Assembly: GCA_964529965.1 (NCBI GenBank)
Contig: CAZHAD010000004.1
Location: forward strand, 10,358-73,142
DNA: 62,785 bases
From: an uncultured Leptospirales bacterium
Lineage (GTDB): Bacteria > Spirochaetota > UBA4802 > UBA5550
Reading direction: 5' to 3'
The translations under genes were made by a program, and so were the position numbers. Below are positions 10,812 to 54,163 of this stretch, piece after piece (the first letter of the stretch is position 1; each line of letters starts with the position of its first letter). The notes below the pieces were generated by a model, which worked only from the letters and a program-made list of their open reading frames with translations, did not search any database and was not told the DNA's origin.

Positions 10812-11948
10812 AATATGCCCTCCTTGATTATTTAACATGAATGTCGAGTAAAAAGTTGTTTTGTTTAAATCGGAATTATCTTTGTTTTTGTAATATACGT
10901 GTGAATTTATCATCATGGACAAAAATTGCAAGAGCTTTTTGCAACTAGAATGAGGTATAAAAAAATGATTATAACGATCTATGTGGATTCATTGGCAGTG
11001 TACAGGTCAGATTTTGAAGAAAAGAAAGCCAAAAGGAAAATTCTTACAAAAGGTAAGAAATAATCAGTGTAAATTTTCTTATTTAGTAAATTAAGGCAAA
11101 TTTTCAATACTTAATTTTCGACCTCAAAGTCTACAAATTTTTTTATACTTTTTGATAAATTCATACAAGGAAAATTACAAAACCTGGCTGAAGCAGGTAT
11201 ATCTTCCCGGAGAAATTTTAGTTACTACTATTGTATTATCCGGGAAGCATCGAGACCAGTGCGTTGCTCGTGGATGGCAAGACAGCAGATGCACGGAATA
11301 TGTTGCTCGATGAGGGATATGTAAAACGGTTACAGCCCGAGATACAGCAGGCATATCTTGTTCTTATTCCGATCAATCCTACTTTAAAAGTAATGCTCGG
11401 CGTCTTGCTAAAGAATTTCTTTTGATATTGAATGCTGCTGTGGAATTAACAGATATGTAGTGTTGTGTGGGGCTCCGTCGTCAAAAAAAAAATGAAACTT
11501 TCAGGATGCACCCGGAATTAACCGGCTATTTTATATAAATATTGCACCGATCAACGACTTTTTTTTGTTTGTTGTTTCTCTCTCGGTGTTTTTTTGCAGG
11601 AAATTACGCTGCTCATAGAGACATATTTTTTTTCTTGAAAACTTTCATGGTAGAAAAATGAAAAATAAACAAAAATATATTTGCATAATTAACCCGAGAA
11701 ATCAAATAATATCGATCAGCCGCCTGCCTTATTAAAAAACATGATCCTGTTTGCGTATTTATACAATAACCGTATTATGATCAGTCAAAAAAATTTTATC
11801 ACAGCGCGTCCGCTCTTTCCGATAGGAAAGCCTATAAACCACGAGGCTCTGGTCCGGGGATAAGGCGCAAAACATTGTATGAAAAAATTCCCGGTCCCGA
11901 CTCGTCGGGACTGCGAGGCTATTGTATAACACCTTTCAAGGAAATATT

Positions 11949-30624: not shown

Positions 30625-30640
30625 TAGGAAGGAGATGATC

Positions 30641-31810: not shown

Positions 31811-31812
31811 AT

Positions 31813-33525: not shown

Positions 33526-33959
33526 TGGGATTCGAGCCCCGAATTGTCGGATTTTTATGTAACTGGTGTTCCTATACCGGCGCCGACCTGGCGGGAACGA
33601 GCCGGGTGAAGTATCCGCACAATATCCGGATCATCCGGGTGATGTGCACGGCGCGGATAGACCCGACCTTCGTTCTCAAGGCCATGGCCGACGGCGCCGA
33701 CGGCGTGCTCATCTGCGGGTGCCATCCGGGGGATTGCCACTATGTTGAGGGCAACTTCAAGGCCATGCGCAGATACGCCCTGCTCAAGAGAACGCTGCGC
33801 GATTTCGGCATCGACGATTCGCGGGTGCGGCTGGAGTGGGTGAGCGCGAGCGAAGGCGTCCGCTTCGCGGAGGTGGTCAAGGACATGACCGAGAAGATAA
33901 GAAGCCTCGGCCCGAATAAAGTAAAGGTGGAACTCGCCACCGACGCTGTCGAGAGGTAA
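33525..33959 (+). CDS. mvhD: MvhD (methyl-viologen-reducing hydrogenase delta subunit) family [2Fe-2S] protein, Cys form
   Basis: Contains 'IVGFLCNWCSYTGADLAG', 'IRVMCTARID' and 'LICGCHPGDCHY'. The start overlaps the hdrA stop as GTGATG. Confidence 0.9.
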   Translation: MGFEPRIVGFLCNWCSYTGADLAGTSRVKYPHNIRIIRVMCTARIDPTFVLKAMADGADGVLICGCHPGDCHYVEGNFKAMRRYALLKRTLRDFGIDDSRVRLEWVSASEGVRFAEVVKDMTEKIRSLGPNKVKVELATDAVER

Positions 33960-33963
33960 CAAC

Positions 33964-36392: not shown

Positions 36393-36921
36393 CGCGCAGG
36401 TGAAAACGCTGTTGGTGGGTATGGGCAATCCGATACTTTGCGATGACTCCATCGGAATACGTCTTGCAAAATATATCAATACCCGTATCGGGCTTGCAGA
36501 GGACGTGACCGTACTTGAGGAATGCTCGGTCGGCGGCCTCAATTTAATCGATATCGCCGCCGGGTATGAGCGCATGATTGTGCTGGATTCCATCAGGACC
36601 ACGGTCAACCGTCCGGGATATTGGTACCGGTTCACCGCCGAATCGCTTAAGAAAACGATGAACCTCAACAATATCCATGACGCCAACTTCGCGACAGCGC
36701 TTGACCTGGGCCGGCGGCTCGGCATACCGCTGCCCGATGATAAGGAGATTCATATTTTCGCCGTTGAGGTTCTTGATAACGCCACCTTCTCGGAAACGAT
36801 GACGGAACCGCTTGAACGGAATTTTCATAAATATGCGGCTGAGATTTATTCGGAAATAGCTGAGATGCTGGAAGCATCTCCGGAACCGGAGCGCGTCGCG
36901 CGGATCGGAATATACTCATAA
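36370..36921 (+). CDS. Hydrogenase maturation endopeptidase (HycI/FrhD family)
   Basis: Contains the 'LLVGMGNPILCDDSIGIRL' and 'MIVLDSI' motifs. The true start may be GTG 36400, which lies after the mvhA stop. Confidence 0.85.
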   Translation: MNFGEGVDAQVKTLLVGMGNPILCDDSIGIRLAKYINTRIGLAEDVTVLEECSVGGLNLIDIAAGYERMIVLDSIRTTVNRPGYWYRFTAESLKKTMNLNNIHDANFATALDLGRRLGIPLPDDKEIHIFAVEVLDNATFSETMTEPLERNFHKYAAEIYSEIAEMLEASPEPERVARIGIYS

Positions 36922-36966: not shown

Positions 36967-37383
36967 ATGAATAAACAGAAAAACTGGCTTACAATAGTAA
37001 AAAAATTTGCACCTTTTATCTTAATTATCATTTTCGCTATAATAGGTATTATCGGTTATTCCCTGAGCAACGCTTCGCCGCCCGTGAGGATACTGTTCAA
37101 GTCCAAGGCCGGGTATGTGATCTTTTCACACCAGGCCCATGTGAAAGATTACGGTCTGGAGAAATGCCTGGACTGCCATCATAACATCGCATCACCCGCG
37201 TCTTTGAACATGTCTTCGCCCGAATGGAACTGCAGTTCCTGCCACAATGAAGCATCGACGGAATATGCGAATATCTGCGAGGACAGGGCCCCTCACCGGC
37301 AATGCATCGGTGCGAAATGCGTGGAATGTCATACCGGTATGGGTTTGAATCCCAAAGAGTGTACATTCTGTCATAAATTATGA
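36967..37383 (+). CDS. Membrane-anchored or exported tetrahaem cytochrome c (cytochrome c3-like)
   Basis: 138 aa with an N-terminal hydrophobic helix 'FAPFILIIIFAIIGIIGY'. Four CxxCH motifs are present: CLDCH, CSSCH, CVECH, CTFCH. Confidence 0.85.
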   Translation: MNKQKNWLTIVKKFAPFILIIIFAIIGIIGYSLSNASPPVRILFKSKAGYVIFSHQAHVKDYGLEKCLDCHHNIASPASLNMSSPEWNCSSCHNEASTEYANICEDRAPHRQCIGAKCVECHTGMGLNPKECTFCHKL

Positions 37384-37414: not shown

Positions 37415-38713
37415 ATGAACATACGGTCGATATTCGGTTTTTTACCTCCCCGGCTGCTGTATTCTTGCACGGATCTTCCTGTAACCGATGTCTCCCTGCC
37501 GAAGCAATCGGTGATATTATTGGGCAAGAGCTCGGAGGGGGCGGCCCTTCCCGCGCTCGTCCCCGGTGATTTGTTAAAAACAGGCGGGAAGATCCTCGAT
37601 TCAAAGGGAAATCTCCTATCTTATTCACCGGTAACCGGAGCGGTAGCCGAGATTTACAATCTCTCGGGCATTGACGAGGATTTCAATGCGGTTTCCGTGA
37701 ACACGTCAGAACAGGACATATGGGACGAGAACCGCAGCGGGGCCGGCAACTATCTTGAGATGGAGCCGGCCGCCCTTGTTTCCCTTTTATGCGAATCGGG
37801 CTTTTCTCTGGACATTAACAATGGCAAGAAACCTGATGCTGTAATCCTCAACTGCCTTGAGAGCGATCTTCTGATATCGATCAACCGGAATGTGCTTGCC
37901 GAGTACGGCGACAGCCTCAGGAAGGGGCTGGTGCTCTTGAAAAGGATCTCAGGCTCGGATGAGGCCATCATCGCGGTCCCCGGGGAGCTGCGCGATATTG
38001 CCGAACAGATCGCGGTCCGGGGCGGCGAAAGGATAGCCGTTGTGGACGTGCTGAAGCCGGTATATCCATTCGGCATGAAGGAAGTCATCCCAAGGGTTTT
38101 ATCGCGCAAAAAAGTCAGGAGGCCGCTGGTCATTACGCCCGAATACCTCAATTCGATCGTCCTGTTTCTGGAGATGGGCTCTCCCGCCGTGCAGAAGTTC
38201 GTCACCCTCATCGATCGCAACGGCGTCAGGATGAACATGAAGGTGAGGATAGGCACGCCGGTATCCCATGTTTTAAGAGAGGGAAACGTCAAGATAACCG
38301 AGCTGGACAAGCTTGTGCTGGGAGGGAGCATGAGGGGAAGGCCGATCTTCCACGCAGAATTCCCCGTGACCGCCGATATTGACGCGATTCTGATCCAGGG
38401 CGGGGAAGCGGTTGTGGCTCCCCTGAATGAAACATGCGTGGGATGCGGGAAATGCGTCGGCGTATGTCCCAATAAGCTGCAGGTGAATCTGCTCGCACGC
38501 TATGCCGAGTTTAACATATTCGAGCGCTGCCGGGAGCTTGATATCGACCACTGCATCGAATGCGGATTGTGCGCATACGTATGCATGTCGAGAAGGTCGA
38601 CAGTACAATATCTGACCTACGCCAAGAAGGAATTGGCGATCATGGAAAAGGAAGGGGAGCACGCCATCGGACAGTCGGGCGAATATGAAGAAGGAATTAA
38701 ATCTTGCCATTGA
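37415..38713 (+). CDS. rnfC: RnfC-like subunit lacking the NADH/FMN-binding glycine-rich motif
   Basis: The position is first in the rnfCDGEAB order. C-terminal 'CVGCGKCVGVCPNKL' and 'CIECGLCAYVCMSR' are present. 'YPFGMKEVI' and 'LGGSMRG' align to RnfC 'YPQGGEKQLI' and 'SGGPMMG'. There is no GxGGAGFP-type motif anywhere in the protein. Confidence 0.78.
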   Translation: MNIRSIFGFLPPRLLYSCTDLPVTDVSLPKQSVILLGKSSEGAALPALVPGDLLKTGGKILDSKGNLLSYSPVTGAVAEIYNLSGIDEDFNAVSVNTSEQDIWDENRSGAGNYLEMEPAALVSLLCESGFSLDINNGKKPDAVILNCLESDLLISINRNVLAEYGDSLRKGLVLLKRISGSDEAIIAVPGELRDIAEQIAVRGGERIAVVDVLKPVYPFGMKEVIPRVLSRKKVRRPLVITPEYLNSIVLFLEMGSPAVQKFVTLIDRNGVRMNMKVRIGTPVSHVLREGNVKITELDKLVLGGSMRGRPIFHAEFPVTADIDAILIQGGEAVVAPLNETCVGCGKCVGVCPNKLQVNLLARYAEFNIFERCRELDIDHCIECGLCAYVCMSRRSTVQYLTYAKKELAIMEKEGEHAIGQSGEYEEGIKSCH

Positions 38714-38753
38714 AAAATCGGGCGAACATGAAGAAGGAATAAAATCATGCCAT
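38675..38753 (+). repeat. Imperfect tandem duplication (2 x 36 nt, period 43 nt, 33/36 identical) across the rnfC stop / rnfD start
   Basis: Copy 1 is TCGGGCGAATATGAAGAAGGAATTAAATCTTGCCAT (38675-38710). Copy 2 is TCGGGCGAACATGAAGAAGGAATAAAATCATGCCAT (38718-38753). Confidence 0.85.
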
Positions 38754-39727
38754 CCAGCGAGATAAAATATTATAACCTGGTCGTGACCTCCGCCCCCCAC
38801 GTGCACGCGGGCACGACCTACGCCGGAGCGATGTACACGATTGTATTCGCGCTCATGCCCGCGGCGATTTACGCGATACACATCTACGGCATTGACGCGG
38901 CGAGGGTGATGTCGGTGTCGATAGCATCGGCGATGGCGAGCGAGTATATCATTCAAAAGTTGTTCAGAACGCCGGCCACCATCGACGACGGGAACGCCCT
39001 GCTGATGGGGCTCCTCATGGCGTTCATACTCCCCCCCAGCGTTCCCTGGTGGCTCATCGTCGTGGGTTGCTTTTTTTCCATACTCGTGGGCAAGCAGATT
39101 TTCGGGGGCAGGGGCGGCAATACCTTCCACCCGGTCCTTCTCGGGTGGGTGGCGCTCAGATTTTCATGGGCGGATTACATCAATTACAGCTTCGGCGCCA
39201 TAAATTATAACCTCAACTTCCCCATAGAGTATCCCCTGCATGTATTGAAAAAATCCGGCGCCGCTGCCATCGCCAACCTTAACTACCTGGACCTGTTTCT
39301 TGGCAAGCAGGTCGGAGGGATAGGGGCTTCGGCTGTGTGGTTGATACTCATCGGCGGGCTTTTCCTCATCGCGCGCGGGATCATATCCTGGAGAATTCCG
39401 TTCGCCTATATTGCGGGCGTCGCCGCCACCGCCTCGGTTTTCTGGCTGGCTGACGGCAGCAGATACGCGGACCCGCTTTTCCATATCATCGTGGGGAATG
39501 TCATGATAGGCGCGTTCTTTTTTGCGACGGATTATTCGAGTTCTCCGGTCAATAAGACGGCCATGCTCATTTTCGGCTTCGGGTGCGGCATGTTTACGGT
39601 GATCTTCAGGATACTGAGCAATAATCCGAACGGCGTATTTTTCGCCATACTTTTCATGAATATCTTTTACCCGCTGCTCGACAAGATCAGGCCGTCGGTT
39701 CCGGGAAAGGCGATGAAGGGAGCATAG
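38747..39727 (+). CDS. rnfD: Rnf complex subunit D (NqrB/RnfD family)
   Basis: A polytopic membrane protein with a 'FFATDYSSSPV' region corresponding to the covalent-FMN site of the family. Confidence 0.9.
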   Translation: MPSSEIKYYNLVVTSAPHVHAGTTYAGAMYTIVFALMPAAIYAIHIYGIDAARVMSVSIASAMASEYIIQKLFRTPATIDDGNALLMGLLMAFILPPSVPWWLIVVGCFFSILVGKQIFGGRGGNTFHPVLLGWVALRFSWADYINYSFGAINYNLNFPIEYPLHVLKKSGAAAIANLNYLDLFLGKQVGGIGASAVWLILIGGLFLIARGIISWRIPFAYIAGVAATASVFWLADGSRYADPLFHIIVGNVMIGAFFFATDYSSSPVNKTAMLIFGFGCGMFTVIFRILSNNPNGVFFAILFMNIFYPLLDKIRPSVPGKAMKGA

Positions 39728-39733
39728 GCGGCC

Positions 39734-40306
39734 ATGAAAGAGTATATAAAAATGATCGTGGTATTGTCGGTAATCAGCGCCGTGTGCGGATTCGGACTCG
39801 CAGGAATCAGGTCCCTGACGAAAGAGCGCATCGAAGAGCAGAAGCTCCTCTACGTGGAGGGACCGGTGGTCAAAAAAATATTGGCCGGCTCGACCAACGA
39901 CCTCATCAAGGACAGGAAGGAAATAGTAATAAACAAGACGAAGCATATCGTTTTTATCGGAAAGAAGAACGGCAAACCCTGGGCACTCGCTTATGAGGCG
40001 GAGGGCACCGGGTTCGGCGGAGAAATGAGCGTCATGATCGGAGTCGACCTTATCAATGACACCCTCACCGGCATAGGAGTCACCTCCAACAAGGAGACCC
40101 CGGGGGTTGGCTCGCGGGCGACCGAGGACACCTTCACCAATGAATTCAAGAACAAGGACCTGAACGCGGTTTTCAAAATAAAGCCGGACGGCGGGGTCAT
40201 CGACGCGGTCACCGGCGCGACCATCGCCTCGCGAGGGGTATGCGGCGCAGTGCAGAAGGGGGTGTCCATGTTCAAGGAGATCAAGAAACAGGCGGTGAAG
40301 CAATAG
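39734..40306 (+). CDS. rnfG: Rnf complex subunit G (FMN-binding)
   Basis: An N-terminal TM segment and the 'DAVTGATIASRG' (S/T-G-A-T) covalent FMN attachment motif. Confidence 0.9.
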   Translation: MKEYIKMIVVLSVISAVCGFGLAGIRSLTKERIEEQKLLYVEGPVVKKILAGSTNDLIKDRKEIVINKTKHIVFIGKKNGKPWALAYEAEGTGFGGEMSVMIGVDLINDTLTGIGVTSNKETPGVGSRATEDTFTNEFKNKDLNAVFKIKPDGGVIDAVTGATIASRGVCGAVQKGVSMFKEIKKQAVKQ

Positions 40307-40319
40307 AGGGGAGAAGACA

Positions 40320-40922
40320 ATGGCGACATTAACACAGGAGTTTACCAAGGGCCTCTGGAAGGAGATTCCGCCCTTCAGGCTCGTACTCGGCATATGCGCG
40401 GCCCTGGCGGTGACCAAATCGATGCTGGACGGCTTCGGCATGGGGGTCGCCCTGATATTCGTGCTGGTCTGCTCGAACGTGATCATATCGATGCTCAGGA
40501 ACGTGATACCGAAAAAGGTCCGCCTCGCCTGCTATATCGTCGTTATCGCAACGTTCGTCGTTATCGTTGAGCTGATCACCCAGGCGTACGTTTACAGCCT
40601 GTACGAGGCGCTGGGAATATTCATCCCCCTCATCGTGGTGAACTGCATAATACTCGGAAGGGCCGAGGCGTTCGCATCGAAAAAGCCGGTGCTTCGATCA
40701 CTGCTGGACGGCCTCGGGATCGGCGTCGGGTACATGCTGGCCCTCGTTGTCCTCGGCGGGTTCCGTGAGGTCCTGGGCAGGGGCACGCTGCTGGCGGGCA
40801 GCCAGTACGTCGTCCACCTTTTCGGCCCTGCATTCAAGCCGTTCGCTTTCATGGTCGAGGCTCCGGGTGCCTTCATCTGCCTCGGCCTAATGCTCGGAAT
40901 CATGAATATACTGGGGGATTGA
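40320..40922 (+). CDS. rnfE: Rnf complex subunit E
   Basis: About 6 TM helices. 'LGIFIPLIVVNCIILGRAEAFA' is typical of the RnfE/NqrD family. Confidence 0.9.
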   Translation: MATLTQEFTKGLWKEIPPFRLVLGICAALAVTKSMLDGFGMGVALIFVLVCSNVIISMLRNVIPKKVRLACYIVVIATFVVIVELITQAYVYSLYEALGIFIPLIVVNCIILGRAEAFASKKPVLRSLLDGLGIGVGYMLALVVLGGFREVLGRGTLLAGSQYVVHLFGPAFKPFAFMVEAPGAFICLGLMLGIMNILGD

Positions 40923-41518
40923 TGATGGAATTTGTAATACTCATTATCACTGCCATACTGATAAAAAATATCCTCCTCGCCGAATACCTGGGGAACTGTC
41001 CGTTCATAGGTACTTCAAAGAAGATGAGCACTGCGATAGGGATGGGGATGGCGGTCATATTCACGGTGGCCCTCGCCAGCGTTTTCACCTGGGCCATTCA
41101 GAAGTACGCGCTTAATCCCCTTGACCTGGGATACCTGCAGACGATCGTCTTCATTCTCGTCATCGCCGCGCTGGTCCAGCTCGTGGAGTTTTTCCTGAAA
41201 AAGTCGGTCCCCCCGCTTTACAAGGCTCTGGGCATATTCCTTCCGCTCATTACGACCAACTGCGCGGTGCTCGGGATCGCCGTACTGAATATAAGGCGTG
41301 ATTATAACTTTTTGGAAATGCTGGTATTTTCGATCGCCGCGTCCGCGGGCTTTTCCCTTGCCCTCATTCTTATGACCGGCATTCGCGAACGGTACGAGAC
41401 CACGCACATACCGCGCGCGCTGCAGGGCACGGCGATCAGCCTCATCACGGCGGGGTTGATGGCGATGGCGTTTCTGGGCTTCGCGGGCGTGGACACGGCG
41501 TTGAATGCCTTGAAGTAA
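40922..41518 (+). CDS. rnfA: Rnf complex subunit A
   Basis: About 6 TM helices. 'LGIFLPLITTNCAVLG' is typical of RnfA/NqrE. The start overlaps the rnfE stop (TGATG). Confidence 0.9.
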   Translation: MMEFVILIITAILIKNILLAEYLGNCPFIGTSKKMSTAIGMGMAVIFTVALASVFTWAIQKYALNPLDLGYLQTIVFILVIAALVQLVEFFLKKSVPPLYKALGIFLPLITTNCAVLGIAVLNIRRDYNFLEMLVFSIAASAGFSLALILMTGIRERYETTHIPRALQGTAISLITAGLMAMAFLGFAGVDTALNALK

Positions 41519-41542: not shown

Positions 41543-43585
41543 ATGCTTACGACAACACTGTTTCTCCTCGGCCTCGGATTCGTCGCGGCGCTCATTCTGG
41601 CGGTCGCCTCGAAGGTGTTTTACGTGTGGGAGGATCCGAAGATCGCGGAGGTCGAGGATTCGCTCCTCGGCGCAAACTGCGGAGGGTGCGGCTTCCCCGG
41701 ATGCTCCGCCGCCGCGACCGCGGTCATTCTCGGAAAGACGGGAGTGAACGTGTGCGTGGCGGGCGGCAACGAGGTCGCCTTGAAGGTCGCTGCGATCATG
41801 GGCCAGGAGGTCGAGCTGAAGGAGCCCGAGATCGCCTATTCGAGCTGCAGGTACAATCTGCTCGAGGCCGAAACGCGTTTCATCTATTCGGGAGTGAACG
41901 ATTGCCGCGCGGCGGCCATGTACGGGGGCGGCCCGAAGGAATGCCCCATCGGATGCATCGGGCTCGGCACCTGTGCACGCGCCTGTCCCTTCGGCGCCAT
42001 CACCATGGGGGCCCACGGCATGCCCGTGTTCGACAGGAACAAGTGCAGAAGCTGCGGCATCTGCGTTGAGGTCTGCCCCAAGGACATCATCTATCTTTCA
42101 TCCGCGACCACGCGCATGATCGGCGACTATCGCGTCGATGAGTGCTCGACCCCGTGCCAGCGGGCGTGCCCGAGCGGCGTCAACATACCGGCATACATCA
42201 GGCAGATCTCGATGGGCAATTACGATGAGGCGCTGCGGATCATCAAGGAGCGGTGTCCCCTGCCGCTCATCGTGGGCAGGATATGCCCCGCTCCGTGCGA
42301 GATGGACTGCCGCCGCACCCTGGTAGACCAGTCGGTCGGCATCAATAACCTGAAGCGCTTCGTAGCGGACCGCGAGATGCAAAGCGGCAGGAGGATCTAC
42401 CCGTTCCTGGCGCCCAAAACCGACCACAGGGTCGCCGTCATCGGCGGCGGCGCTCAGGGCCTGAGCCTGGCTTTTTATCTCGCCTGTCTGGGGCATAAAC
42501 CGACCGTCTTTGAATCCTCCGAAAGGCTCGGCGGCATCATAAGGTACGTGATACCCGAGTCCCGGCTTCCGGAGAAGGTCGTGGACTGGGAGATTGAAGG
42601 CGTGCTGGGCGCGGGCGTGGAGGCCGAGACTGGAAAGACGGCAGGCAGGGATTTCACCATCGGCTCGCTGCTCAACGACGGATACAAAGCGGTCGCCTTC
42701 GCCACCGGAGGGTTAGACAGCAGGCAGATAATCCATGGAAGGGGCGTGGCCGCACAATCCATCCCTGGCGTATACACTCTTTTGGATTTTCTTACCGTGC
42801 TTTCAAGGCGTGAGGATTTCCGGATCGGAGGAAAGGTGTACGTCTTCGGCGGAGGGAATGCGACACTTGAGGCTGCCCGCCTTTGCCTGCGCAAGGGCGC
42901 CGAAGAGGCCACTATAATCTATCCATTTTTAAAACAGGACCTCGTATTGCGTGGAATCGACGTGGACGCCGCAGAGCGCGAAGGAATACGATTTCTCTTC
43001 GGAACCGTAATATCCGGCGTCTCCGGTATAGGAGACACCCTAGCCGGCCTGGCCCTGATAAAGGAGGACTGCTCGGTTGAGCACGTACCCGCCGAAGCAT
43101 TGATCGCGGCGACCGGACGTATTTCGGATCTGGTTTTCGTGCGCGCCGGCGATGAGGATCCCCGGCCCGAGGCATGGGCCACCATTGCGTCATATGCCAT
43201 GAACCCGGACAACCGATATGATGACATATTCAACCTCAATGAGAACGGCGTATTCAATGACAATCTCGCGGTCATACATTCCATCGCCAAGGGAAGGAGA
43301 ATGGCGCGTGCCGCGCATCTGTTTTTAACGGGCAAGGAGCTTGAGCCGCAGGCTAATCAGATCAAAAAAGACATGAAAATACTTAACATAACGCACATCA
43401 AGGGGGTTGATGCGAACGCGCGGAACATCGCGCTGCAGAATTTGAGCGCCTCCAGTTATTGCGATACCGCTGTCCTCTTCAGCCAGACCGAGATCGGAAG
43501 CGGGCTCTCCGAGGACGCGGCGATAAAAGAGGCGGCACGGTGCCTTGACTGTGGATTGATCTGTTATAAGAAATCCGCGTCATGA
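41543..43585 (+). CDS. rnfB: RnfB fused to a GltD/NfnB-like FAD- and NAD(P)H-binding iron-sulfur flavoprotein (680 aa)
   Basis: Residues 1 to about 200 are RnfB: a TM anchor, 'GANCGGCGFPGCSAAA', 'CPIGCIGLGTCARACPFGAI' and 'CRSCGICVEVCPKDI'. The rest is GltD-like: 'CQRACPSGVNIPAYIRQI...RICPAPCEMDCRR', 'VAVIGGGAQGLSLAFYLACLG', 'LGGIIRYVIPESRLP' and 'VYVFGGGNATLEAARLCLRKGA'. Confidence 0.85.
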   Translation: MLTTTLFLLGLGFVAALILAVASKVFYVWEDPKIAEVEDSLLGANCGGCGFPGCSAAATAVILGKTGVNVCVAGGNEVALKVAAIMGQEVELKEPEIAYSSCRYNLLEAETRFIYSGVNDCRAAAMYGGGPKECPIGCIGLGTCARACPFGAITMGAHGMPVFDRNKCRSCGICVEVCPKDIIYLSSATTRMIGDYRVDECSTPCQRACPSGVNIPAYIRQISMGNYDEALRIIKERCPLPLIVGRICPAPCEMDCRRTLVDQSVGINNLKRFVADREMQSGRRIYPFLAPKTDHRVAVIGGGAQGLSLAFYLACLGHKPTVFESSERLGGIIRYVIPESRLPEKVVDWEIEGVLGAGVEAETGKTAGRDFTIGSLLNDGYKAVAFATGGLDSRQIIHGRGVAAQSIPGVYTLLDFLTVLSRREDFRIGGKVYVFGGGNATLEAARLCLRKGAEEATIIYPFLKQDLVLRGIDVDAAEREGIRFLFGTVISGVSGIGDTLAGLALIKEDCSVEHVPAEALIAATGRISDLVFVRAGDEDPRPEAWATIASYAMNPDNRYDDIFNLNENGVFNDNLAVIHSIAKGRRMARAAHLFLTGKELEPQANQIKKDMKILNITHIKGVDANARNIALQNLSASSYCDTAVLFSQTEIGSGLSEDAAIKEAARCLDCGLICYKKSAS

Positions 43586-43619: not shown

Positions 43620-44132
43620 ATGAATTCATATCAGATTACGAAAGAGTATCATGCGTTTTTAAAGGACGAGGAGCTTGTTGAATGCAGGGATACCGTTGAT
43701 TCAATACTCACCGAGTATCGCGGAAGGAGGGGAGGGCTCATTCCGGTTCTCCAGCAGGTGCAGGGGCATCTGAAATTTCTTCCCACACCGGTTCAAAATT
43801 ACGTCGCGCTCGGTCTCGGGGTTCCGCCGTCCGATGTCTACGGGGTGGTTTCGTTCTATTCCTTTTTTTCCATGAAGCCGAGGGGGAGGCATCTGGTGCG
43901 GACCTGTCTGGGGACCGCCTGTTACGTAAAAGGAATACAGAAGGTAATCGATAAGATCGAGAGGGAATTCGGCGTTACCGTGGGAGGGACCACCCAGGAC
44001 AGACGGTTTACGCTTCAGGGGGTTCGATGCCTCGGCGCGTGCGGGCTTGCGCCGGTGGTCATGGTCGACGAAGACACCCTCGGGCAGGTCGATCCTGCTA
44101 AAATCATCAAGATGCTTGAAAAATATGAATAA
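43620..44132 (+). CDS. NuoE/HydC-like thioredoxin-fold [2Fe-2S] subunit
   Basis: Contains 'GGLIPVLQQVQ', 'VRTCLGTACYVKG' and 'CLGACGLAPVVMVDED'. Confidence 0.9.
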   Translation: MNSYQITKEYHAFLKDEELVECRDTVDSILTEYRGRRGGLIPVLQQVQGHLKFLPTPVQNYVALGLGVPPSDVYGVVSFYSFFSMKPRGRHLVRTCLGTACYVKGIQKVIDKIEREFGVTVGGTTQDRRFTLQGVRCLGACGLAPVVMVDEDTLGQVDPAKIIKMLEKYE

Positions 44133-44229: not shown

Positions 44230-44613
44230 ATGGGAAAACTGAAGATAGAGGATCTCCAGAAAATCAAGGAGAGGGTGAAGGGGACCGTCACCGTCAGGGA
44301 GGGGTCTCACCGTGTGAAGATAGTCGTGCACATGGGGACCTGCGGGATTGCGGCAGGGGCGCGTACGGTGCTGAACACGTTCCTGAATGAAATCAATGCG
44401 CGCGGCGTGACGGACGTGATATTGACGACCTCCGGCTGCGCGGGATTGTGCAGCAGGGAGCCGATGGCTACCATCGAGTTGAAGGGGACTGCGCCGGTAA
44501 AATATATCGACCTTGATGAGGAAAAAACAAAAAAGATTTTTTCGGACCATGTCATGGATGAAAAGCCGGTCATAGAATTCGCGCTCGTTCAGGGGAGCGA
44601 AACAACGTATTAA
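44230..44613 (+). CDS. Thioredoxin-like [2Fe-2S] ferredoxin
   Basis: Contains the 'VVHMGTCGIAAGA' and 'TSGCAGLCSREPM' cysteine pairs. Confidence 0.8.
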   Translation: MGKLKIEDLQKIKERVKGTVTVREGSHRVKIVVHMGTCGIAAGARTVLNTFLNEINARGVTDVILTTSGCAGLCSREPMATIELKGTAPVKYIDLDEEKTKKIFSDHVMDEKPVIEFALVQGSETTY

Positions 44614-44624: not shown

Positions 44625-46421
44625 ATGCAGAAAGCTTACAGGACACATATACTGGTTTGCGCGGGGACCGGGTGCGTCGCGTCCGGCTCTTTAAAGGTGC
44701 GCGACAAGATGATTTCAGAGATCGAGCGGCACGGGCTTCAGGAAGAGGTCATGGTGGCCACCACCGGGTGCAACGGCTTTTGCGCGGTCGGACCGATCAC
44801 CATCGTCCACCCGGAGGGAATATTTTACAAGCGACTGGATGTGGAAGACGTGCCGTTTTTCGTGGAGGAGCTGCTGATCAAGGGAAGGACGGTGAAAAAG
44901 CACCTCTTTACCGAGAAGCAGCGCAACGAGCAGATCCCGGTAATGAACGATATCGGGTTTTTCAAGAACCAGGTCCTGGTGGCGCTGAAAAACAGGGCCC
45001 TCATCGATCCCGACGTCATAGACGAGTATATAGGACGGGACGGCTACCTGGCCACCTCCAGGGCGCTGAGGGAGATGACGCCGGAGCAGATCGTCGAAGA
45101 AGTGTTGAAGTCCGGCCTGCGGGGCAGGGGCGGCGGAGGTTTTTCCACCGGCATGAAGTGGAAGTTCTGCAAGGAGGCGAAGGGAGACGTCAAGTACATC
45201 CTCTGCAACGCGGATGAGGGGGACCCCGGCGCCTTCATGGACCGGTCCCTTCTCGAGAGCGACCCTCACGCCGTTCTTGAGGGGATGATCATCGGCGGAA
45301 AGGCCATAGGGGCGCACAAGGGATATATTTACGTGCGCGCCGAGTATCCGCTGGCGATCAAGCGGCTCAACACCGCCATCGGCCAGGCACGCGATTACGG
45401 GCTTCTGGGCGAGAACATTCTCGATAGCGGCTTCGATTTTGATATAGAGCTCTATTACGGCGCCGGCGCCTTTGTCTGCGGCGAGGAAACGGCGCTCATG
45501 CAATCGATCGAAGGAAAGCGGGGCATGCCGAGGCCCCGGCCCCCGTTCCCCGCGCACAAGGGACTGTGGGCGAAACCCACTGTTTTGAATAACGTCGAAA
45601 CCTTCGCCAACATCCCGCAGATCATTTCCCGCGGCGGCGACTGGTTCGCAAGCCTGGGCACCGAAAAAAGCAAGGGCACCAAGGTCTTCGCCCTTACCGG
45701 CGACGTGAATAATATCGGCCTGATAGAGGTGCCCATGGGCATAACCCTGCGCAAAATCGTGTACGATATCGGGGGGGGCATCAAGAATGGCAAAAACCTC
45801 AAGGCGATCCAGATAGGCGGCCCATCCGGGGGATGCCTGCCGGCGAGTATAATAGACACCCCCGTAGACTACGAATCGATCATCAAAACGGGCGCCATCG
45901 TCGGTTCGGGCGGCATGGTCGTCATGGATGACGGAAACTGCATGGTTGACATCGCAAAATTTTTTCTCGGATTCACCGCTGAGGAATCGTGCGGCAAGTG
46001 CACGCCCTGCAGGGTGGGCACGAAAATTCTGCTCGAAAAGCTGACCGATATATCTGAGGGGAGAGGAAAGGACGGCGATATCGAGATCCTCGAAACCATC
46101 TCGCGCAATGTGATCTCCTCGTCCCTGTGCGGACTCGGCCAGACCGCCCCCAATCCGGTGCTCACGACCATTCGATACTTCAGGGACGAGTACGAAGCCC
46201 ACATCTACGACAAGAAGTGTCCTGCCAAGCGGTGCAAGGCGTTGATAACCTTTACCATTGATCCGGAAAAGTGCACCGGATGCACCCTGTGTAAGCGCAA
46301 CTGCCCGCAGCAGTGCATATCGGGTGAGAAGAAGATGCCCCACACCATCGACCAGTCCCAGTGCATCCGCTGCAGTCTGTGCTATGATTCATGCAAATTT
46401 AACGCCGTTACGGTCGAATGA
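44625..46421 (+). CDS. NuoF/HydB-like NAD(P)H- and FMN-binding subunit with N-terminal [2Fe-2S] and C-terminal 2x[4Fe-4S] domains
   Basis: Contains 'ILVCAGTGCVASGS', 'GLRGRGGGGFSTGMKWKF' (FMN), 'CNADEGDPGAF' and 'ESCGKCTPCRVG'. The C-terminus has 'CTGCTLCKRNCPQQCI' and 'CIRCSLCYDSCKFNAV'. Confidence 0.9.
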   Translation: MQKAYRTHILVCAGTGCVASGSLKVRDKMISEIERHGLQEEVMVATTGCNGFCAVGPITIVHPEGIFYKRLDVEDVPFFVEELLIKGRTVKKHLFTEKQRNEQIPVMNDIGFFKNQVLVALKNRALIDPDVIDEYIGRDGYLATSRALREMTPEQIVEEVLKSGLRGRGGGGFSTGMKWKFCKEAKGDVKYILCNADEGDPGAFMDRSLLESDPHAVLEGMIIGGKAIGAHKGYIYVRAEYPLAIKRLNTAIGQARDYGLLGENILDSGFDFDIELYYGAGAFVCGEETALMQSIEGKRGMPRPRPPFPAHKGLWAKPTVLNNVETFANIPQIISRGGDWFASLGTEKSKGTKVFALTGDVNNIGLIEVPMGITLRKIVYDIGGGIKNGKNLKAIQIGGPSGGCLPASIIDTPVDYESIIKTGAIVGSGGMVVMDDGNCMVDIAKFFLGFTAEESCGKCTPCRVGTKILLEKLTDISEGRGKDGDIEILETISRNVISSSLCGLGQTAPNPVLTTIRYFRDEYEAHIYDKKCPAKRCKALITFTIDPEKCTGCTLCKRNCPQQCISGEKKMPHTIDQSQCIRCSLCYDSCKFNAVTVE

Positions 46422-46476
46422 CGGGGGAAATACCGATATACGGGATCACATATTTTGATACCAGGTTCAGGTGGCC

Positions 46477-49227
46477 ATGAGTTCTGACAATACTATCAAC
46501 ATAAACGGCAATAAATACTCCTTCAGCGAGGGACAAACCGTCCTTGAAGTGGCGAGGGAAAACGGGATATACATACCCACGCTCTGCCATCTCGAGGGGA
46601 CCACCAACACCGGCGCCTGCAGGGTCTGCGTGGTCGAGGTGGAGGGGGTGCGCAACCTGGTCGCGTCCTGCGCCATGCCCGCCTCCAGGAATATGGTCGT
46701 ATTTACCGATTCCCCGCGGGTCATCGAGTCGCGGCGCTTTGTCATTTCGCTGCTCATGATTTCGGGCAATCACAACTGCGCAGCACGGGGGACCACGAAC
46801 GGCGACTGGGCCGATTTTCAGATGGACGTGCGCGACTACGACGGGAGCGATGAAATCTGCGACGCCTACGGAAGCTGCGTGCTTCAGGAGCTCGCCTACC
46901 GGTATCAGGTGCACGAGAGGATTACCGCCCTCCGCCTTAAGAACCTTTCGCCCGTCTACCGGGTAGAGGACATCAATCCCTTCATCATACGCGATTTTTC
47001 GCGCTGCATCGTATGCGGCAGGTGCGTCAAGGCATGCACCGAGGTCCAGGTGAACAACGCCATCTCGTACGGATACCGCGGCGTTCATGCGAAAATTGTA
47101 ACAAGGGGCGATAGCGCCCTCCTCCATTCGGACTGCGTCTTCTGCGGGGAGTGCATCCAGGTGTGCCCCGTCGGCGCGCTCGTGGAGAAGGACGTCAGGT
47201 TTAACACGCGTTACTGGGGTTTGAAGCGGGTCGAGAGCACGTGTGCAGGCTGCAGCGTCGGGTGTGCGGTCAACATATACGTGAAGGACGACGCCGTAAT
47301 GCGTATTGACGGGAATACCGGCGGCCCGGTCAATCACGGCAGCCTGTGTGTCAAGGGAAGGTACGGGTTCGGGTACCTGCGCAGTCCTGAGAGGCTCTCG
47401 GCGCCCCTGATGAAAAAAAACGGGGGCCGGGAGGCGGTGGAATGGGAAGCCGCGCTCGGCGCGACCGCGAAAAAGCTGAAGGACATAATAAAAGCACACG
47501 GCGCGGACTCGGTCGCGGGCATTGTTTCGGCCCGGTATCCGAATGAAGACGCGTATGTGATGCAGAAATTTTTCCGTACGGTCATTGGGACCAACAACAT
47601 CGACTGCAGCCCGCGGTTGTACGATGCTCCCGCGGTGTACGCCCTTCACGAATCCATGGGCCTTTCCGCAATGACGAATTCCATCGGCGAAATCGATAAA
47701 AGCGACCTCATCCTGGTCGTCGGATCGGATGCCACTGAGAGCCATGCGGTGGCCTCGAGCATGATCAAGAGGGCGGCCTCCCTTCATGAAAAGGGACTCA
47801 TTGTCGTCGACCCGCGGATAACGTCTCTCGCAAGGCACGCAAAGTATCATCTGCGCCCGCATCCCGGCACCGACATCGCCTGGATCTACGGCTTCATGCG
47901 GGTCATGCTCGATGAGCATCTGATCGATGAAACGAAATTGAGCGGGTCATTTGAAAATTTTGAAGAACTGAAAAAAGCGGCCGGGAGGTATACCCCGGAA
48001 TACGTCGAGGGAGCGACCGGCATACCGGGGGCCCTCCTCGCCGAGGCCGCACGAGCTTATGCCCGTGCGGGCGCTGCGTCGATTTTTTACGCGTCCGGTG
48101 TTACCCAGCAGAAGAACGGGACTGAGAATGTACGGGCGCTCGCGGACCTGGCCCTGCTCTGCGGCAACCTTGGAATCGAGGGAGGGGGGATTAACCCTCT
48201 GAGGGGCGAGGGCAACGCGCAGGGAGTTTGCGATATGGGATGCCTTCCCGACCTGCTGCCCGGATATCAGGATGTGGCAGAGGCGGGCGCACGCGAGCGC
48301 TTTAGCCGCCATTGGGGCGTTGAGGTGCCCGCGAAGCCCGGGAAAACTTTGATGAAAATGCTCCGGGCTGTCGAAAAAGGGGGCGTGAGGGCGTTCGTCG
48401 TCATGGGCGTCGATCTCCTGGCCAGTCTGCCCGATTATACGCGTATGGAAAAAGCGCTCAGGAACCTCGATCTTCTTGTCGTTTTAGATATTATTAAAAA
48501 CGAAACGGCTGGGATCGCGGACATGACTCTTCCTGTTGCCTCGATCATGGAGCGGGAAGGGACCATTACCAATACCGAACGGAGGGTCCAGCGCGTAAGA
48601 CAGGCCCTCAAGCCTGTCGGCCAATCCCGGGAATCATGGAAGGTGTTTGTCGACCTCGCCCGATTAATGGGCAGGCCGATGGAATACGGCTCCTCGGAGC
48701 AGATATTCAATGAGATGGCACAGGTTGTGCCGGGTTATTCAGGATTGAGTTACGGAAGGCTTGAAAAGGAGTGGGGCGTACAATGGGGATTCGAATCGCA
48801 GGGCGAAAGAAAAATCTATTCGCCTCAAGCCGGTAAGGGCGGCGCGCCGCGCTTTCATGTCGTTGATTTCAAGCTTCCTGACAAGGGAGATATGCCGTTT
48901 ACGCTGGCGGCGGGGAAAATTATGAAAGAATATTTTCATTATACGGGCGATCTTGACGCGCTGAAGAGGGGAGTTGCCCTGATGAATCCCGCGGACGCTC
49001 TGGACATCGGCCTTGAGGATTCGGGAACCGTAACAATCACCTCTCCCGCCGGCTCGATAATGTTTCAGGTGGAGCTTGAGACCGATATTCCCCAGGGCAT
49101 GCTTTTCATACCCTTTCATCCCTCAAAGGAAAAAGTAGGCGCGCTCATATCATCGGAGATAGAGTCTGTTTCAGGCATTCCCGCATATAAATCGGCCGGG
49201 GTGAAAATCGAAGCTCATAATATTTAA
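46477..49227 (+). CDS. NuoG/FdhA-like subunit: [2Fe-2S] + [4Fe-4S] domains fused to a Mo/W-bisPGD (formate dehydrogenase-like) domain that lacks the Sec/Cys ligand
   Basis: Contains 'TLCHLEG...GACRVCVVEV', 'CIVCGRCVKAC', 'CVFCGECIQVCPVGA' and 'CAGCSVGCAVNIY'. The active-site segment reads 'GTNNIDCSPRL-YD-APAVYALHESMGLSAMTNS', where Fdhs have 'ARL-(U/C)H-'. 'NPLRGEGNAQG' and a C-terminal beta-barrel domain are present. The start is ATG 46477 or GTG 46471. Confidence 0.82.
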   Translation: MSSDNTININGNKYSFSEGQTVLEVARENGIYIPTLCHLEGTTNTGACRVCVVEVEGVRNLVASCAMPASRNMVVFTDSPRVIESRRFVISLLMISGNHNCAARGTTNGDWADFQMDVRDYDGSDEICDAYGSCVLQELAYRYQVHERITALRLKNLSPVYRVEDINPFIIRDFSRCIVCGRCVKACTEVQVNNAISYGYRGVHAKIVTRGDSALLHSDCVFCGECIQVCPVGALVEKDVRFNTRYWGLKRVESTCAGCSVGCAVNIYVKDDAVMRIDGNTGGPVNHGSLCVKGRYGFGYLRSPERLSAPLMKKNGGREAVEWEAALGATAKKLKDIIKAHGADSVAGIVSARYPNEDAYVMQKFFRTVIGTNNIDCSPRLYDAPAVYALHESMGLSAMTNSIGEIDKSDLILVVGSDATESHAVASSMIKRAASLHEKGLIVVDPRITSLARHAKYHLRPHPGTDIAWIYGFMRVMLDEHLIDETKLSGSFENFEELKKAAGRYTPEYVEGATGIPGALLAEAARAYARAGAASIFYASGVTQQKNGTENVRALADLALLCGNLGIEGGGINPLRGEGNAQGVCDMGCLPDLLPGYQDVAEAGARERFSRHWGVEVPAKPGKTLMKMLRAVEKGGVRAFVVMGVDLLASLPDYTRMEKALRNLDLLVVLDIIKNETAGIADMTLPVASIMEREGTITNTERRVQRVRQALKPVGQSRESWKVFVDLARLMGRPMEYGSSEQIFNEMAQVVPGYSGLSYGRLEKEWGVQWGFESQGERKIYSPQAGKGGAPRFHVVDFKLPDKGDMPFTLAAGKIMKEYFHYTGDLDALKRGVALMNPADALDIGLEDSGTVTITSPAGSIMFQVELETDIPQGMLFIPFHPSKEKVGALISSEIESVSGIPAYKSAGVKIEAHNI

Positions 49228-49388: not shown

Positions 49389-49826
49389 ATGAAAATAACC
49401 GCCAAGGACATTTTACAACAAAAAGGAGCTAACCTGATAAGCATCAAAAAGGGAGGCTCTCTTCTGGATGCGGTCAAAACGATGCGCTCACACAAAATCG
49501 GCGCGGTTCTGGTGCTCGGGAAGGAAGAGGGCATCGAGGGTATCATTACCGAGCGTGACGTATTAAGCGCGGTCGAAAAATATAACGGAAACGTCGAGCG
49601 CGTCTCAGTAGATGAAATGATGACGAAAAATATTATCGTGGCCGTTCCAGATGACGACATCGAGTATTTGATGGGCATAATGTCGAAAAATAGAATACGG
49701 CATATCCCGATTGTAAGCCAGAACAAAATAGCCGGGCTGATATCAATCAGGGACCTGGTCGCCACGAGAATAGAAGAATGCGAACTGGAAAACCGTCTCC
49801 TTTCAGATTATATGACGAGCGGATGA
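49389..49826 (+). CDS. CBS-pair domain protein
   Basis: Two CBS repeats are present: 'HKIGAVLVLGKEEGIEGIITERDV' and 'NRIRHIPIVSQNKIAGLISIRDL'. Confidence 0.85.
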   Translation: MKITAKDILQQKGANLISIKKGGSLLDAVKTMRSHKIGAVLVLGKEEGIEGIITERDVLSAVEKYNGNVERVSVDEMMTKNIIVAVPDDDIEYLMGIMSKNRIRHIPIVSQNKIAGLISIRDLVATRIEECELENRLLSDYMTSG

Positions 49827-53976: not shown

Positions 53977-54145
53977 TAATGGAACCGCCGATGGACGTCG
54001 ATGAACGCAGATTAAATTTGGATGAAATTACCTATTGTATTAATTACAAATGTATTATTGCACTCGGATTCCTTCGTAGAGGCAGGATTATTCCCGTTTT
54101 TCGCGGATATGGGCGTACCATATTCAACAAAGGTAATTGTTTGTT

Positions 54146-54163
54146 ATCGGCGTGAATCGGCGG
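54146..54163 (+). repeat. 18-nt motif ATCGGCGTGAATCGGCGG, copy 1 (internal direct repeat ATCGGCG-TGA-ATCGGCG)
   Basis: This is an exact match to 59441-59458. It lies 48 nt upstream of the hdrB ATG. Confidence 0.8.

Follow-up and report, generated by a model that had tools for sequence, protein, structure and literature searches.

We analysed a stretch of 62,785 nucleotides from an uncultured Leptospirales bacterium (contig CAZHAD010000004.1; the window, below, is this whole stretch), and in it the gene at 41543..43585 of the forward strand, which is the last of an rnfCDGEA-B operon and encodes a large RnfB, that is, an RnfB moiety continued by a flavin adenine dinucleotide (FAD)/iron-sulfur flavoprotein of the GltD/NfnB family. 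This protein is very probably the B subunit of a cytochrome-c-linked Rnf in which the fused FAD/2x[4Fe-4S] module serves as the cytoplasmic electron gate. Judged by its sequence, the fused module belongs to the NfnA/StnC subtype (Bfu 'NfnL') and not to the bifurcating NfnB type. In many anaerobes Rnf is the chief ion pump, and diagrams almost always show it as a ferredoxin:NAD+ oxidoreductase; the large-RnfB class, widespread among sulfate reducers, Spirochaetota, Aminicenantes and Fibrobacteraceae, departs from that scheme. The large-RnfB architecture itself has been described before and is not new, and the window adds to it a member from a Spirochaetota-like lineage. The assignment of the fused module to the NfnA/StnC subtype appears to be new, as do the division of large RnfBs into two paralogous types, the missing catalytic pair of the FdhA-like protein encoded in the window and the absence of the covalent-FMN threonine from RnfD in large-RnfB operons.

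The rnfB gene is one uninterrupted frame of 680 amino acids with an ATG start and no internal stop codon. A preliminary description made from the letters of the window had read it as an RnfB fused to a GltD/NfnB-type flavoprotein, and matches to Pfam, NCBIfam and Protein Data Bank (PDB) sequences agreed with that reading, including all three Pfam models that had been named for a check (PF04060, PF14691 and PF07992). The RnfB moiety (41543..42112, +; residues 1-190) consists of a transmembrane helix at residues 2-25, the PF04060 (FeS) cluster domain at residues 43-72 (36.6 bits against a cut-off of 23) and a dicluster ferredoxin domain (Fer4_7 and Fer4 matches at residues 138-184). It scored 81.5 bits with TIGR01944 (cut-off 68.7), the NCBIfam RnfB models spanned residues 3-209, and residues 8-187 matched the A. 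woodii RnfB 9eri_B with 169 bits in the PDB sequence search, where 7zc6_B aligned as well. Conservation was scored over 149-151 aligned full-length large RnfBs of 660-705 amino acids, drawn from NCBI, ENA, JGI and Logan assemblies and from several phyla. The cluster cysteines of the RnfB moiety (C46/C49/C54/C71, C134/138/144/148 and C168/171/174/178) are each conserved in 149/149, and C102 and C121 are likewise invariant. All of the motifs listed in the preliminary description are present, among them CGGCGFPGC at 46-54 and CRSCGICVEVCP at 168-179, but the first ferredoxin motif, CPIGCIGLGTCARACP, follows the pattern Cx3Cx5Cx3CP and not the CxxCxxCxxxCP that had been given for it.

The flavoprotein part, spanned by the GltD-like models PRK12771 and PRK12814 (residues 191-675), begins with the Fer4_20 domain (PF14691, 74.3 bits; 42137..42385, +; residues 199-281), which shows the pattern Cx3Cx3CP ... 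CPAPCEMDC, with the cysteines at C201x3C205x3C209 ... C248PAPC252EMDC256, and carries K271 in 'LKRFVAD'. It continues with PF07992 (Pyr_redox_2, residues 296-529, 52 bits), alongside further matches to NAD_binding_8 and Pyr_redox. The FAD beta-alpha-beta unit and the segment LGGIIRYVIPESRLP lie at 42428..42571 (+), with GGGAQG at 301-306 and LGGIIRYVIPESRLP at 329-343, and the second Rossmann beta-alpha-beta unit lies at 42830..42967 (+; residues 430-475), reading FGGGNATLEAA...ATIIYPFLKQDLVLRGID with the glycine loop GGGNATLEAA at residues 436-445. The protein closes with the motif E-x2-R-C-L-x-C-G-L-x-C-Y (43529..43567, +; residues 663-675, with C667, C670 and C674). An AlphaFold2 model of the whole protein had a predicted local distance difference test score (pLDDT) of 82 and a predicted TM-score of 0.82; it placed a helix at residues 2-25, and pLDDT exceeded 90 both for the FAD beta-alpha-beta region and for the second Rossmann domain. 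Conservation in this part was as strict as in the RnfB moiety: C205/209/248/252/256 of Fer4_20, the FAD GxGxxG and R341 are found in 149/149, R334 in 143/149 and K271 in 151/151, and the C-terminal RCLxCGLxCY is kept in 149-151 of 151. The C-terminal motif aligns with 'eaSRCLeCG' at the junction between the NfnL and Fdh-like parts of 9bov_A and 8oh5_C.

The fusion is real. In a database search, the same architecture came up in more than 120 proteins (660-697 amino acids, 44-80% identity) from Spirochaetota, Aminicenantes and Deltaproteobacteria metagenome-assembled genomes (MAGs), and in all at least 149 full-length homologues from independent assemblies and phyla, with 37-80% identity, are collinear with it. 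Spirochaetes bacterium RBG_16_49_21 shows 80% identity and synteny with the window. A protein 100% identical to that of the window is present on 11 other contigs. The loci discussed below are a sample that depends on the matches listed in scans of species-representative genomes, which are biased towards Desulfobacterota, and of metagenome contigs. The former scan found isolates that carry a large RnfB, namely Desulfosarcina alkanivorans PL12 (complete genome), Desulfocarbo indianensis and Salidesulfovibrio brasiliensis; in the metagenome scan, made with a clade-specific alignment, almost all of the matches listed were GltD-like loci and at least one was a full-length fusion. At the junction of the two parts R191 is invariant in the aligned sets and C201 is kept in 137/149. 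Because the junction is collinear in independent assemblies, the frameshift or merger at 42100-42200 about which the preliminary description had cautioned was ruled out. That a sequencing or assembly error joined rnfB to a downstream gltD-like gene is thus practically out of the question, given the collinear homologues, complete isolate genomes among them, the identical protein on other contigs and a published RnfB of about 700 amino acids that was seen by proteomics. A 926-aa 'RnfB' of another locus (L029), considered as a Rosetta-stone fusion, was rejected as a product of longest-ORF (open reading frame) calling.

The best matches of the fused module, in sequence and in fold, are the NfnL-like domains of NfnA/StnC (Csac NfnABC 9bov, T. 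sibiricus NfnABC 9n5u and S. ovata StnABC 8oh5). Residues 172-675 scored 233.7 bits with 9n5u_A, 222.6 with 9bov_A and 204.3 with 8oh5_C, ahead of NfnB (4ylf_B, 147 bits), GltD and DPD, and a Foldseek search with the model placed NfnA/StnC at ranks 1-4 (9bov_A at 1e-30, 9n5u_A and 8oh5_C), before NfnB, DPD and GltD. In a library clustered at 50% we found about seven full-length large-RnfB representatives, and the next relatives were NfnA/StnC-like proteins of 1100-1250 amino acids that matched residues 190-672. The ligand of the FAD-proximal cluster within 'L(E/K)RFVAD' is Glu in NfnB and Lys in NfnA/StnC (PMC10482914, PMC11829005). The window protein has K271 at this position, in 'NNLKRFVAD', where 4ylf_B has Glu in the alignment, and it is because of this lysine that we place the module in the NfnA/StnC subtype, in which the FAD simply converts two-electron into one-electron transfer. 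E253 of 'CPAPCEMDC' was considered as an NfnB-type Glu ligand and rejected, since the structure papers put the discriminating ligand in 'L(K/E)RFVAD', the site of Lys271. The large RnfB and NfnA/StnC have in common the Cx3Cx3CP...CPxxCExxC clusters, the proximal Lys, the FAD site and the trailing 'RCLxCG', and in both systems NuoE/NuoF and Fdh-like partners are encoded next door. They differ in that the NfnL module of NfnA/StnC is inserted in a NuoG/Fdh-like subunit and binds NADPH, with YRR and EMPA present, whereas in the window it is carried by a membrane-anchored RnfB, the Fdh-like protein is encoded by a separate gene and the determinants for NADPH are missing.

The preliminary description had offered as one reading an Nfn-like ferredoxin/NAD(P)H junction built onto the pump. 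If such a junction were bifurcating, electron pairs from NAD(P)H would part at the FAD, one electron taking the low-potential path into RnfB and the other going to a second, high-potential acceptor. The homology to NfnB seen with 4ylf_B is in keeping with such a junction, as is R334, which corresponds to the conserved arginine at FAD N5 (Arg201 of NfnB); so is R470, which in ungapped alignment falls on the Arg of 'EMPAR', a second arginine near the isoalloxazine (Arg333, Pf numbering) that is reported to be conserved in bifurcating NfnB only, and which is kept in at least 90% of the window clade. Outside that clade R470 is not kept (34/151 overall), however, and the proximal cluster has Lys instead of Glu, like the non-bifurcating FAD modules of StnC/NfnA, to which the module is nearer than to NfnB in both sequence and fold. 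No NfnA/NfnS-like small subunit (2Fe-2S and FAD, FNR-like) was found in the neighbouring ORFs scanned, and the NADPH site is degenerate. We therefore consider a bifurcating junction very improbable.

The degeneracy of the second nucleotide site bears directly on what the fused module does. The arginine pair of the YRR motif binds the 2'-phosphate of NADPH in the GltD/NfnB family. The solved relatives read GGGNTAMDxAR...V(T)xxYRR(S/T)xxEMPA and the window protein reads FGGGNATLEAARLCLRKGAEEATIIYPFLKQDLVLRGID in ungapped alignments, so that against five solved relatives, including 9n5u_A, 9bov_A, 8oh5_C and 4ylf_B, YRR is replaced by YPF and EMPA by DLVL. Of the second NAD(P)H site announced in the preliminary description the glycine loop is there, but with YPF...DLVL in place of YRR and EMPA the site is incomplete. 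Across the family the arginine pair is kept in 28/149 sequences and YRR together with EMPA in 19-20; both loop glycines are present in 121/149 and a loop glycine is lost in 28/149. In the 23 sequences of the window clade G436, G438 and P461 are invariant.

These differences divide the large RnfBs into two paralogous types. Type N has the canonical GGGN[TS]A..YRRTRxEMPAN and comprises only 20 sequences, which form one contiguous cluster in a neighbour-joining tree; the canonical NADPH motif was found at L019, L021-L030, L032, L033, L035, L044 and L170a (our locus handles) and is absent from the window. In Desulfobacterota, cyt c-rnfCDGEA-B operons close with the type N gene, and NuoE/NuoF/Fdh neighbours were found in 0/14 type N loci with known context. 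Type F, on the window side of the tree, lacks YRR and EMPA, and genes for NuoE, NuoF and an FdhA/NuoG-like protein follow it in 10/10 of the rnf-linked loci examined, the nuoE-nuoF-fdhA set often including a 127-aa 2Fe-2S ferredoxin. Four Desulfobacterales loci have the order NuoE-NuoF-largeRnfB-RseC with no rnf genes nearby, and at three loci on the type F side a divergently oriented selenocysteine-containing formate dehydrogenase (Sec-FDH) stands beside a lone large RnfB. One Spirochaetota locus (L170, GCA_034190085, 7848-12055) carries both types in tandem, in the order cyt c-rnfCDGEA-typeN-typeF-nuoE-fdx-nuoF-fdhA (Sec), and from this order it follows that type F travels with the NuoEF unit. 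The split was not found in PMC5109826 or PMC11434368 and appears to be new, which makes the window protein a member of an apparently undescribed subtype.

The second Rossmann domain has also evolved differently in the two types. In type N its mean pairwise identity is 0.64, against 0.67 for the FAD domain; in all non-N sequences the values are 0.34 and 0.60, and in the window clade 0.41 and 0.63. This shows a relaxed constraint that is specific to the second Rossmann domain in the non-N types. Clusters adjoining large RnfBs also contain NuoF::GltD fusions of 1015-1021 amino acids with the canonical NADPH motif (L003:14581-17646, L085:13077-16130 and L086:17801-20848), and since these keep the motif in the same clusters, its loss in RnfB is not lineage drift. 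The preliminary description had suggested that the nucleotide site of the complex moved to RnfB; in the window protein the supposedly relocated site is itself degenerate, with YRR and EMPA gone and its domain changing about twice as fast as the FAD domain, and the suggestion is not supported in that form.

The other subunits of the operon, encoded by rnfCDGEA at 37415-41518 immediately 5' of rnfB, have been remodelled as well. The RnfC-like protein (37415..38713, +; 432 amino acids) scored 164.6 bits with TIGR01945 (cut-off 245.95) and 30.2 with Complex1_51K (cut-off 31.2), with no SLBB match, and its flavin mononucleotide (FMN)/NADH loop is deleted. In the alignment with C. tetanomorphum 7zc6_C, GIVGMGGATFPTHVK is absent, NAAECEPYLTCD is replaced by NCLESDLLISIN and 'AECEPY' by 'LESDLL'. 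The degenerate RnfC of the preliminary description is thus borne out: the GMGGAxFP loop for FMN and NADH and the (A/G)ECEP motif are missing, and two 4Fe-4S motifs (CVGCGKCVGVCP and CIECGLCAYVC) are kept. The same loss is found in 30/30 full-length RnfC proteins of large-RnfB operons. Since RnfC has lost both the loop and the (A/G)ECEP motif, a rewired Rnf, as the preliminary description had it, is the right frame; the same idea had already been published for Desulfobacula and Desulfococcus (PMC5109826).

RnfD (38747..39727, +; 326 amino acids) matched PF03116 with 304 bits and has 'PIEYPL' in place of 'TTATPL' around residue 161. The threonine of 'TTATPL' is said, after work by Backiel et al. 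in 2008, to carry covalent FMN in canonical RnfD/NqrB. Alignments to 9eri_D and 7zc6_D put a Tyr in its place, and the Thr is missing in 31/33 RnfD proteins of large-RnfB operons. RnfG (39734..40306, +; 190 amino acids; NCBIfam RnfG_DVU2794, 223 bits against a cut-off of 205) keeps the covalent-FMN motif DAVTGATIAS, and the xGAT FMN motif is kept in 32/34 related RnfG proteins. Of the membrane subunits, RnfE (40320..40922, +; 200 amino acids) scored 236.8 bits with TIGR01948 and 216.9 with PF02508, and RnfA (40919..41518, +; 199 amino acids) 259.1 with TIGR01943 and 192.5 with PF02508. Upstream of rnfC lies a gene for a tetrahaem cytochrome c of 138 amino acids (36967..37383, +) with four CxxCH motifs, an N-terminal hydrophobic anchor or signal and a Cytochrom_CIII match of 33.6 bits. 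A multihaem cytochrome gene stands directly upstream of rnfC in 25-26 of 30 large-RnfB operons, and the tetrahaem protein is likely to be the periplasmic partner of Rnf.

In the scheme that we infer for cofactor occupancy, electron path, partner contacts and direction of flow, the fused module would hold one FAD and two 4Fe-4S clusters, and Lys271 would occupy the ligand position of the cluster next to the FAD. Electrons would pass from FAD to the Lys-ligated proximal cluster, the distal cluster and the RnfB clusters, and from there through the RnfA/E membrane cluster and the FMN of RnfG at the outer face to the tetrahaem cytochrome c, and this flow would be reversible and coupled to the movement of Na+ or H+. 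RnfC, which has no FMN/NADH site, and RnfD, which has no covalent-FMN Thr, would no longer form the classical exit to NAD+. With its canonical site, type N would be an NADPH:cytochrome c oxidoreductase whose logic resembles that of Na+-NQR (NqrF/NqrA). A 'swapped-site' Rnf, with NADPH on the B subunit and ferredoxin on RnfC, was considered and set aside: RnfD has no FMN anchor, and downhill flow from C to B would run in the ion-importing direction.

The genes that follow rnfB bear on how type F obtains its electrons. A gene for a NuoE/HoxE-like thioredoxin-fold 2Fe-2S protein (43620..44132, +; 170 amino acids; PF01257, 163.7 bits) begins after a gap of 34 bp in which no convincing terminator was seen. 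Next to it is a gene for a thioredoxin-like 2Fe-2S ferredoxin of 127 amino acids (44230..44613, +), which had a weak match to NCBIfam fdxn_Clost (28.8 bits) and no Pfam match above threshold and which is conserved between nuoE and nuoF at L002, L085, L086, L169 and L170. The NuoF/HydB-like NADH-FMN subunit (44625..46421, +; 598 amino acids) scored 159 bits with Complex1_51K, 110 with NADH_4Fe-4S and 504 with TIGR01959, and has the HydB/Bfu 'B' architecture of an N-terminal 2Fe-2S domain (2Fe-2S_thioredx, residues 5-81), an FMN/NADH core and a C-terminal 2x[4Fe-4S] domain (Fer4, residues 544-598). The fourth gene encodes an FdhA/NuoG-like molybdopterin-fold protein (46471..49227, +; 918 amino acids; TIGR01591, 596.6 bits against a cut-off of 666). 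It otherwise resembles real FDHs closely (T. kivui FdhF, 208 bits), but in alignments to FdhF, FdhH and other FDHs it has 'RLYDAPAV' where they have 'RL(C/U)HAP(S/T)V', that is, Tyr-Asp instead of the catalytic Sec/Cys-His pair, and we rejected it as a working NAD-linked formate dehydrogenase for this reason. Its closest relatives have Leu-Asp or Thr-Asp, and those further removed are either genuine Sec enzymes or NuoG-like proteins in truncated form. With Sec/Cys-His gone from the FdhA-like protein, no third substrate site of its own is obvious in the NuoEF/FdhA-like set, and by its sequence the NuoE/Fdx/NuoF/FdhA-like set resembles a Bfu core that is missing its catalytic third site. In NfnABC/StnABC the NfnL domain supplies that site; in the window this domain sits on RnfB, and NuoE, NuoF and the Fdh-like protein are encoded separately, 34 bp to 2.9 kb downstream of rnfB.

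For type F we propose tentatively, and with a little less than even confidence, that the NuoF-type (Bfu-like) module supplies the nucleotide site in trans, with the fused module as the junction between it and Rnf. The proposal is drawn from the loss of the NADPH determinants, the relaxed second Rossmann domain and the linkage to NuoE/Fdx/NuoF/FdhA-like genes. The module of the window protein might instead bind a pyridine nucleotide itself, most likely NADH and not NADPH, and serve as an NAD(P)H dehydrogenase head that feeds the pump, as was proposed for the Tol2-type Rnf (below) and as NqrF does, with the NuoEF/FdhA-like proteins a separate enzyme co-located by chance. Such binding would fit the intact GGGNAT loop, the residues invariant in the window clade, the confidently folded second Rossmann domain, the retention of both loop glycines in most of the family and the fully canonical site of the type N paralogues. 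In Rossmann folds, a switch from NADPH to NADH requires loss of the arginine pair, and the change from YRR to YPF would be of that kind. The end of beta-2 (IIYPF), however, offers no acidic residue of the sort usual in NADH-specific sites, EMPA is lost too, and 28 of the 149 family members have lost a loop glycine altogether; it is only in the non-N types that the second Rossmann domain changes much more quickly than the FAD domain, and an NADH subunit of the NuoF type is strictly linked. We regard direct binding as the main rival, possible if rather unlikely.

A further possibility is that the flavoprotein part is largely vestigial or structural, leaving a normal RnfB fed by soluble ferredoxin, for example from the neighbouring Hdr/Mvh and NuoEF-type enzymes. 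The RnfB part is indeed complete and highly conserved, the window is rich in ferredoxin-linked bifurcating enzymes, and the distal cluster of NfnB-type modules is a docking site for ferredoxin (PMC12221290). Against this, 149-151 sequences of several phyla all keep the FAD site, both Fer4_20 clusters, K271 and the C-terminal Cys motif unchanged, as a vestige would hardly do, and RnfC and RnfD have lost the sites for the classical ferredoxin:NAD+ reaction, which leaves a vestigial appendage improbable. In a more elaborate reading, type F RnfB would be the docking and electron-entry subunit of a Bfu-type bifurcating module (NuoE, 2Fe-2S ferredoxin, HydB-like NuoF and an FdhA-like scaffold without a formate site) in a membrane supercomplex whose 'third substrate' would be the Rnf pump and the periplasmic cytochrome c. 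Run inward, it would use the ion gradient to draw in electrons from the periplasmic oxidation of formate or H2, with bifurcation to NAD+ and ferredoxin; run in reverse, it would be an NADH- and ferredoxin-confurcating, ion-pumping cytochrome c reductase. A Tat-exported Sec-FDH in the window is a candidate for the periplasmic oxidation of formate. We consider this supercomplex unlikely; a type F RnfB that did join the pump with a bifurcating module would represent a respiratory complex of a new kind.

Several points weigh against a cytochrome-c-linked Rnf gated by the fused module and, in type F, served by NuoF. RnfD may hold a non-covalent flavin, and the cytochrome c partner is suggested by gene adjacency and by analogy with the MmcA-Rnf of Methanosarcina. 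The link of type F to NuoEF/FdhA-like proteins is one of gene neighbourhood, observed at about 17 loci that are nearly all from MAGs, and their sampling depends on the matches listed in both contig scans. The NuoEF/FdhA-like proteins could be a separate soluble enzyme that shares ferredoxin or NADH with Rnf, and the invariance of G436, G438 and P461 in the window clade argues for a working nucleotide site with a changed specificity, for example for NADH. A literature search found no biochemical study of any large RnfB. Searches for RnfB together with GltD, NfnB or fusion returned nothing relevant, and a 2025 review of Rnf and Nqr did not mention fusions or cytochromes.

The published system nearest to the window is the 'D. 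toluolica Tol2-type' Rnf (Doerries et al. 2016, PMC5109826), known from Desulfobacula and Desulfococcus, with an RnfB of about 700 amino acids with NAD-binding sites, a cytochrome gene in the cluster and an RnfC without the 51K NADH/FMN and SLBB domains. Membrane proteomes of D. multivorans contained its subunits, and the authors suggested that it acts in a different mode, which 'awaits experimental verification'; the same paper cites Woehlbrand et al. 2016 (Proteomics 16:973) for the Tol2-type Rnf. A 2024 survey of Desulfovibrionaceae described a 'FAD-dependent oxidoreductase' replacing rnfB and drew the analogy to Nqr (PMC11434368). These papers presuppose a working pyridine-nucleotide site on the large RnfB. 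The Rnf of D. toluolica Tol2, Rnf2 of Desulfococcus multivorans and that of Desulfobacterium autotrophicum agree with the window in the large RnfB with FAD/NAD-type domains, the RnfC without 51K and SLBB, the small cytochrome c gene and the order cyt c-rnfCDGEA-B. The Desulfobacterota operons that we sampled were of type N, with the canonical motif and without a NuoEF/Fdh neighbour, whereas the window has no YRR or EMPA and has the NuoE-Fdx-NuoF-FdhA-like neighbour. From the sequences of its relatives, the published Tol2 protein is presumably of type N.

Comparison with better-known complexes shows how far the window Rnf departs from them. Canonical RnfB (A. woodii 9eri_B, C. tetanomorphum 7zc6_B) shares the transmembrane anchor, the four-Cys domain, the dicluster ferredoxin and the terminal place in rnfCDGEAB, but its C-terminal end consists of further ferredoxin-like domains, to which soluble ferredoxin docks, and its RnfC and RnfD partners keep their FMN sites. 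Na+-NQR resembles the window in design only: a flavin on the B/F side is the entry point of the hydride donor, and NqrA, the homologue of RnfC, has no nucleotide site. The window RnfC had a weak match to NqrA (41.7 bits) and keeps two FeS clusters where NqrA has none; NqrF is a 2Fe-2S and FNR-fold protein unrelated to GltD/NfnL; NqrB keeps its covalent FMN, whereas the window RnfD lacks the Thr; and the acceptor is a quinone in Na+-NQR and probably cytochrome c in the window. No NqrF-type domain was found in the window Rnf proteins, and the NCBIfam Nqr models were far below their cut-offs for all subunits. The Rnf/MmcA of Methanosarcina acetivorans, like the window, has a multihaem cytochrome c gene directly upstream of rnfC, and its electrons are thought to exit at the outer face; its RnfB, unlike that of the window, is short, ferredoxin-dependent and without a fused flavoprotein. 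NCBIfam rnfB_Methano and rnfC_Methano gave 172 and 112 bits on the window proteins, both below cut-off.

Since the NADH site of RnfC and the flavin anchor of RnfD are lost, and a flavoprotein on RnfB and a cytochrome c gene are present, metabolic models that label large-RnfB operons 'Rnf, Fd:NAD+' are probably wrong on both substrates and direction. The two types provide two enzyme hypotheses, one for type N, which has a true NADPH site, and one for type F, whose site is decayed and which is tied to NuoEF/Fdh-like genes. The split between them is a natural experiment on repeated rewiring of Rnf, parallel to the origin of Na+-NQR, and together with the change in RnfD and the dead FdhA-like partner it sharpens the question of what large RnfBs do.

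Other genes of the window and of related loci were recorded as well. The cluster ends with a gene for a CBS-pair protein (49389..49826, +; 145 amino acids; PF00571, 82 bits), as it also does at L002, L003 and L169. The gene for the FdhA-like protein of L002 (14999-17808 on a 642-kb ENA contig) is split; a Sec codon was rejected as the cause, the gene being frameshifted over three frames, and an error of long-read assembly is a likelier source of the break than a Sec codon or decay into a pseudogene. FdhA::NuoE fusions of about 970 amino acids were seen at L086 and L172. Directly upstream of the rnf operon, at 28804-36921, lies an Hdr/Mvh-type cluster with two HdrA-like proteins, a polyferredoxin-like protein, MvhD, the small and large subunits of a NiFe hydrogenase and a HycI-type protease. 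At 24129-27886 (-) are genes for RseC (24129-24560) and for HATPase, PHP and CBS-HATPase proteins, syntenic with L002, L169 and L085, where DRTGG proteins accompany the RseC set, joined at L085 by a HydS-like protein with an Fe-hydrogenase domain; the RseC/HATPase/PHP set is probably a redox-sensing regulatory unit for the cluster. The window encodes two genuine Sec formate dehydrogenase alpha subunits with an in-frame TGA, a Tat-exported one at 10814..7839 (-) and a cytoplasmic one at 59509-61557 (+), with the sites 'ARI*HSATV' and 'ARL*HSSTV'; ORF lists split both genes at the TGA. The Tat-exported enzyme is followed by genes for FdhB (7032-7835), a MobA-like protein (6357-6947) and FdhE (5492-6331). 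The region 52171-58174 encodes a fusion of a NarI-like and a 4Fe-4S membrane protein (DsrMK/HdrED-like), a CCG-domain protein and an HdrA-like flavoprotein of 933 amino acids.

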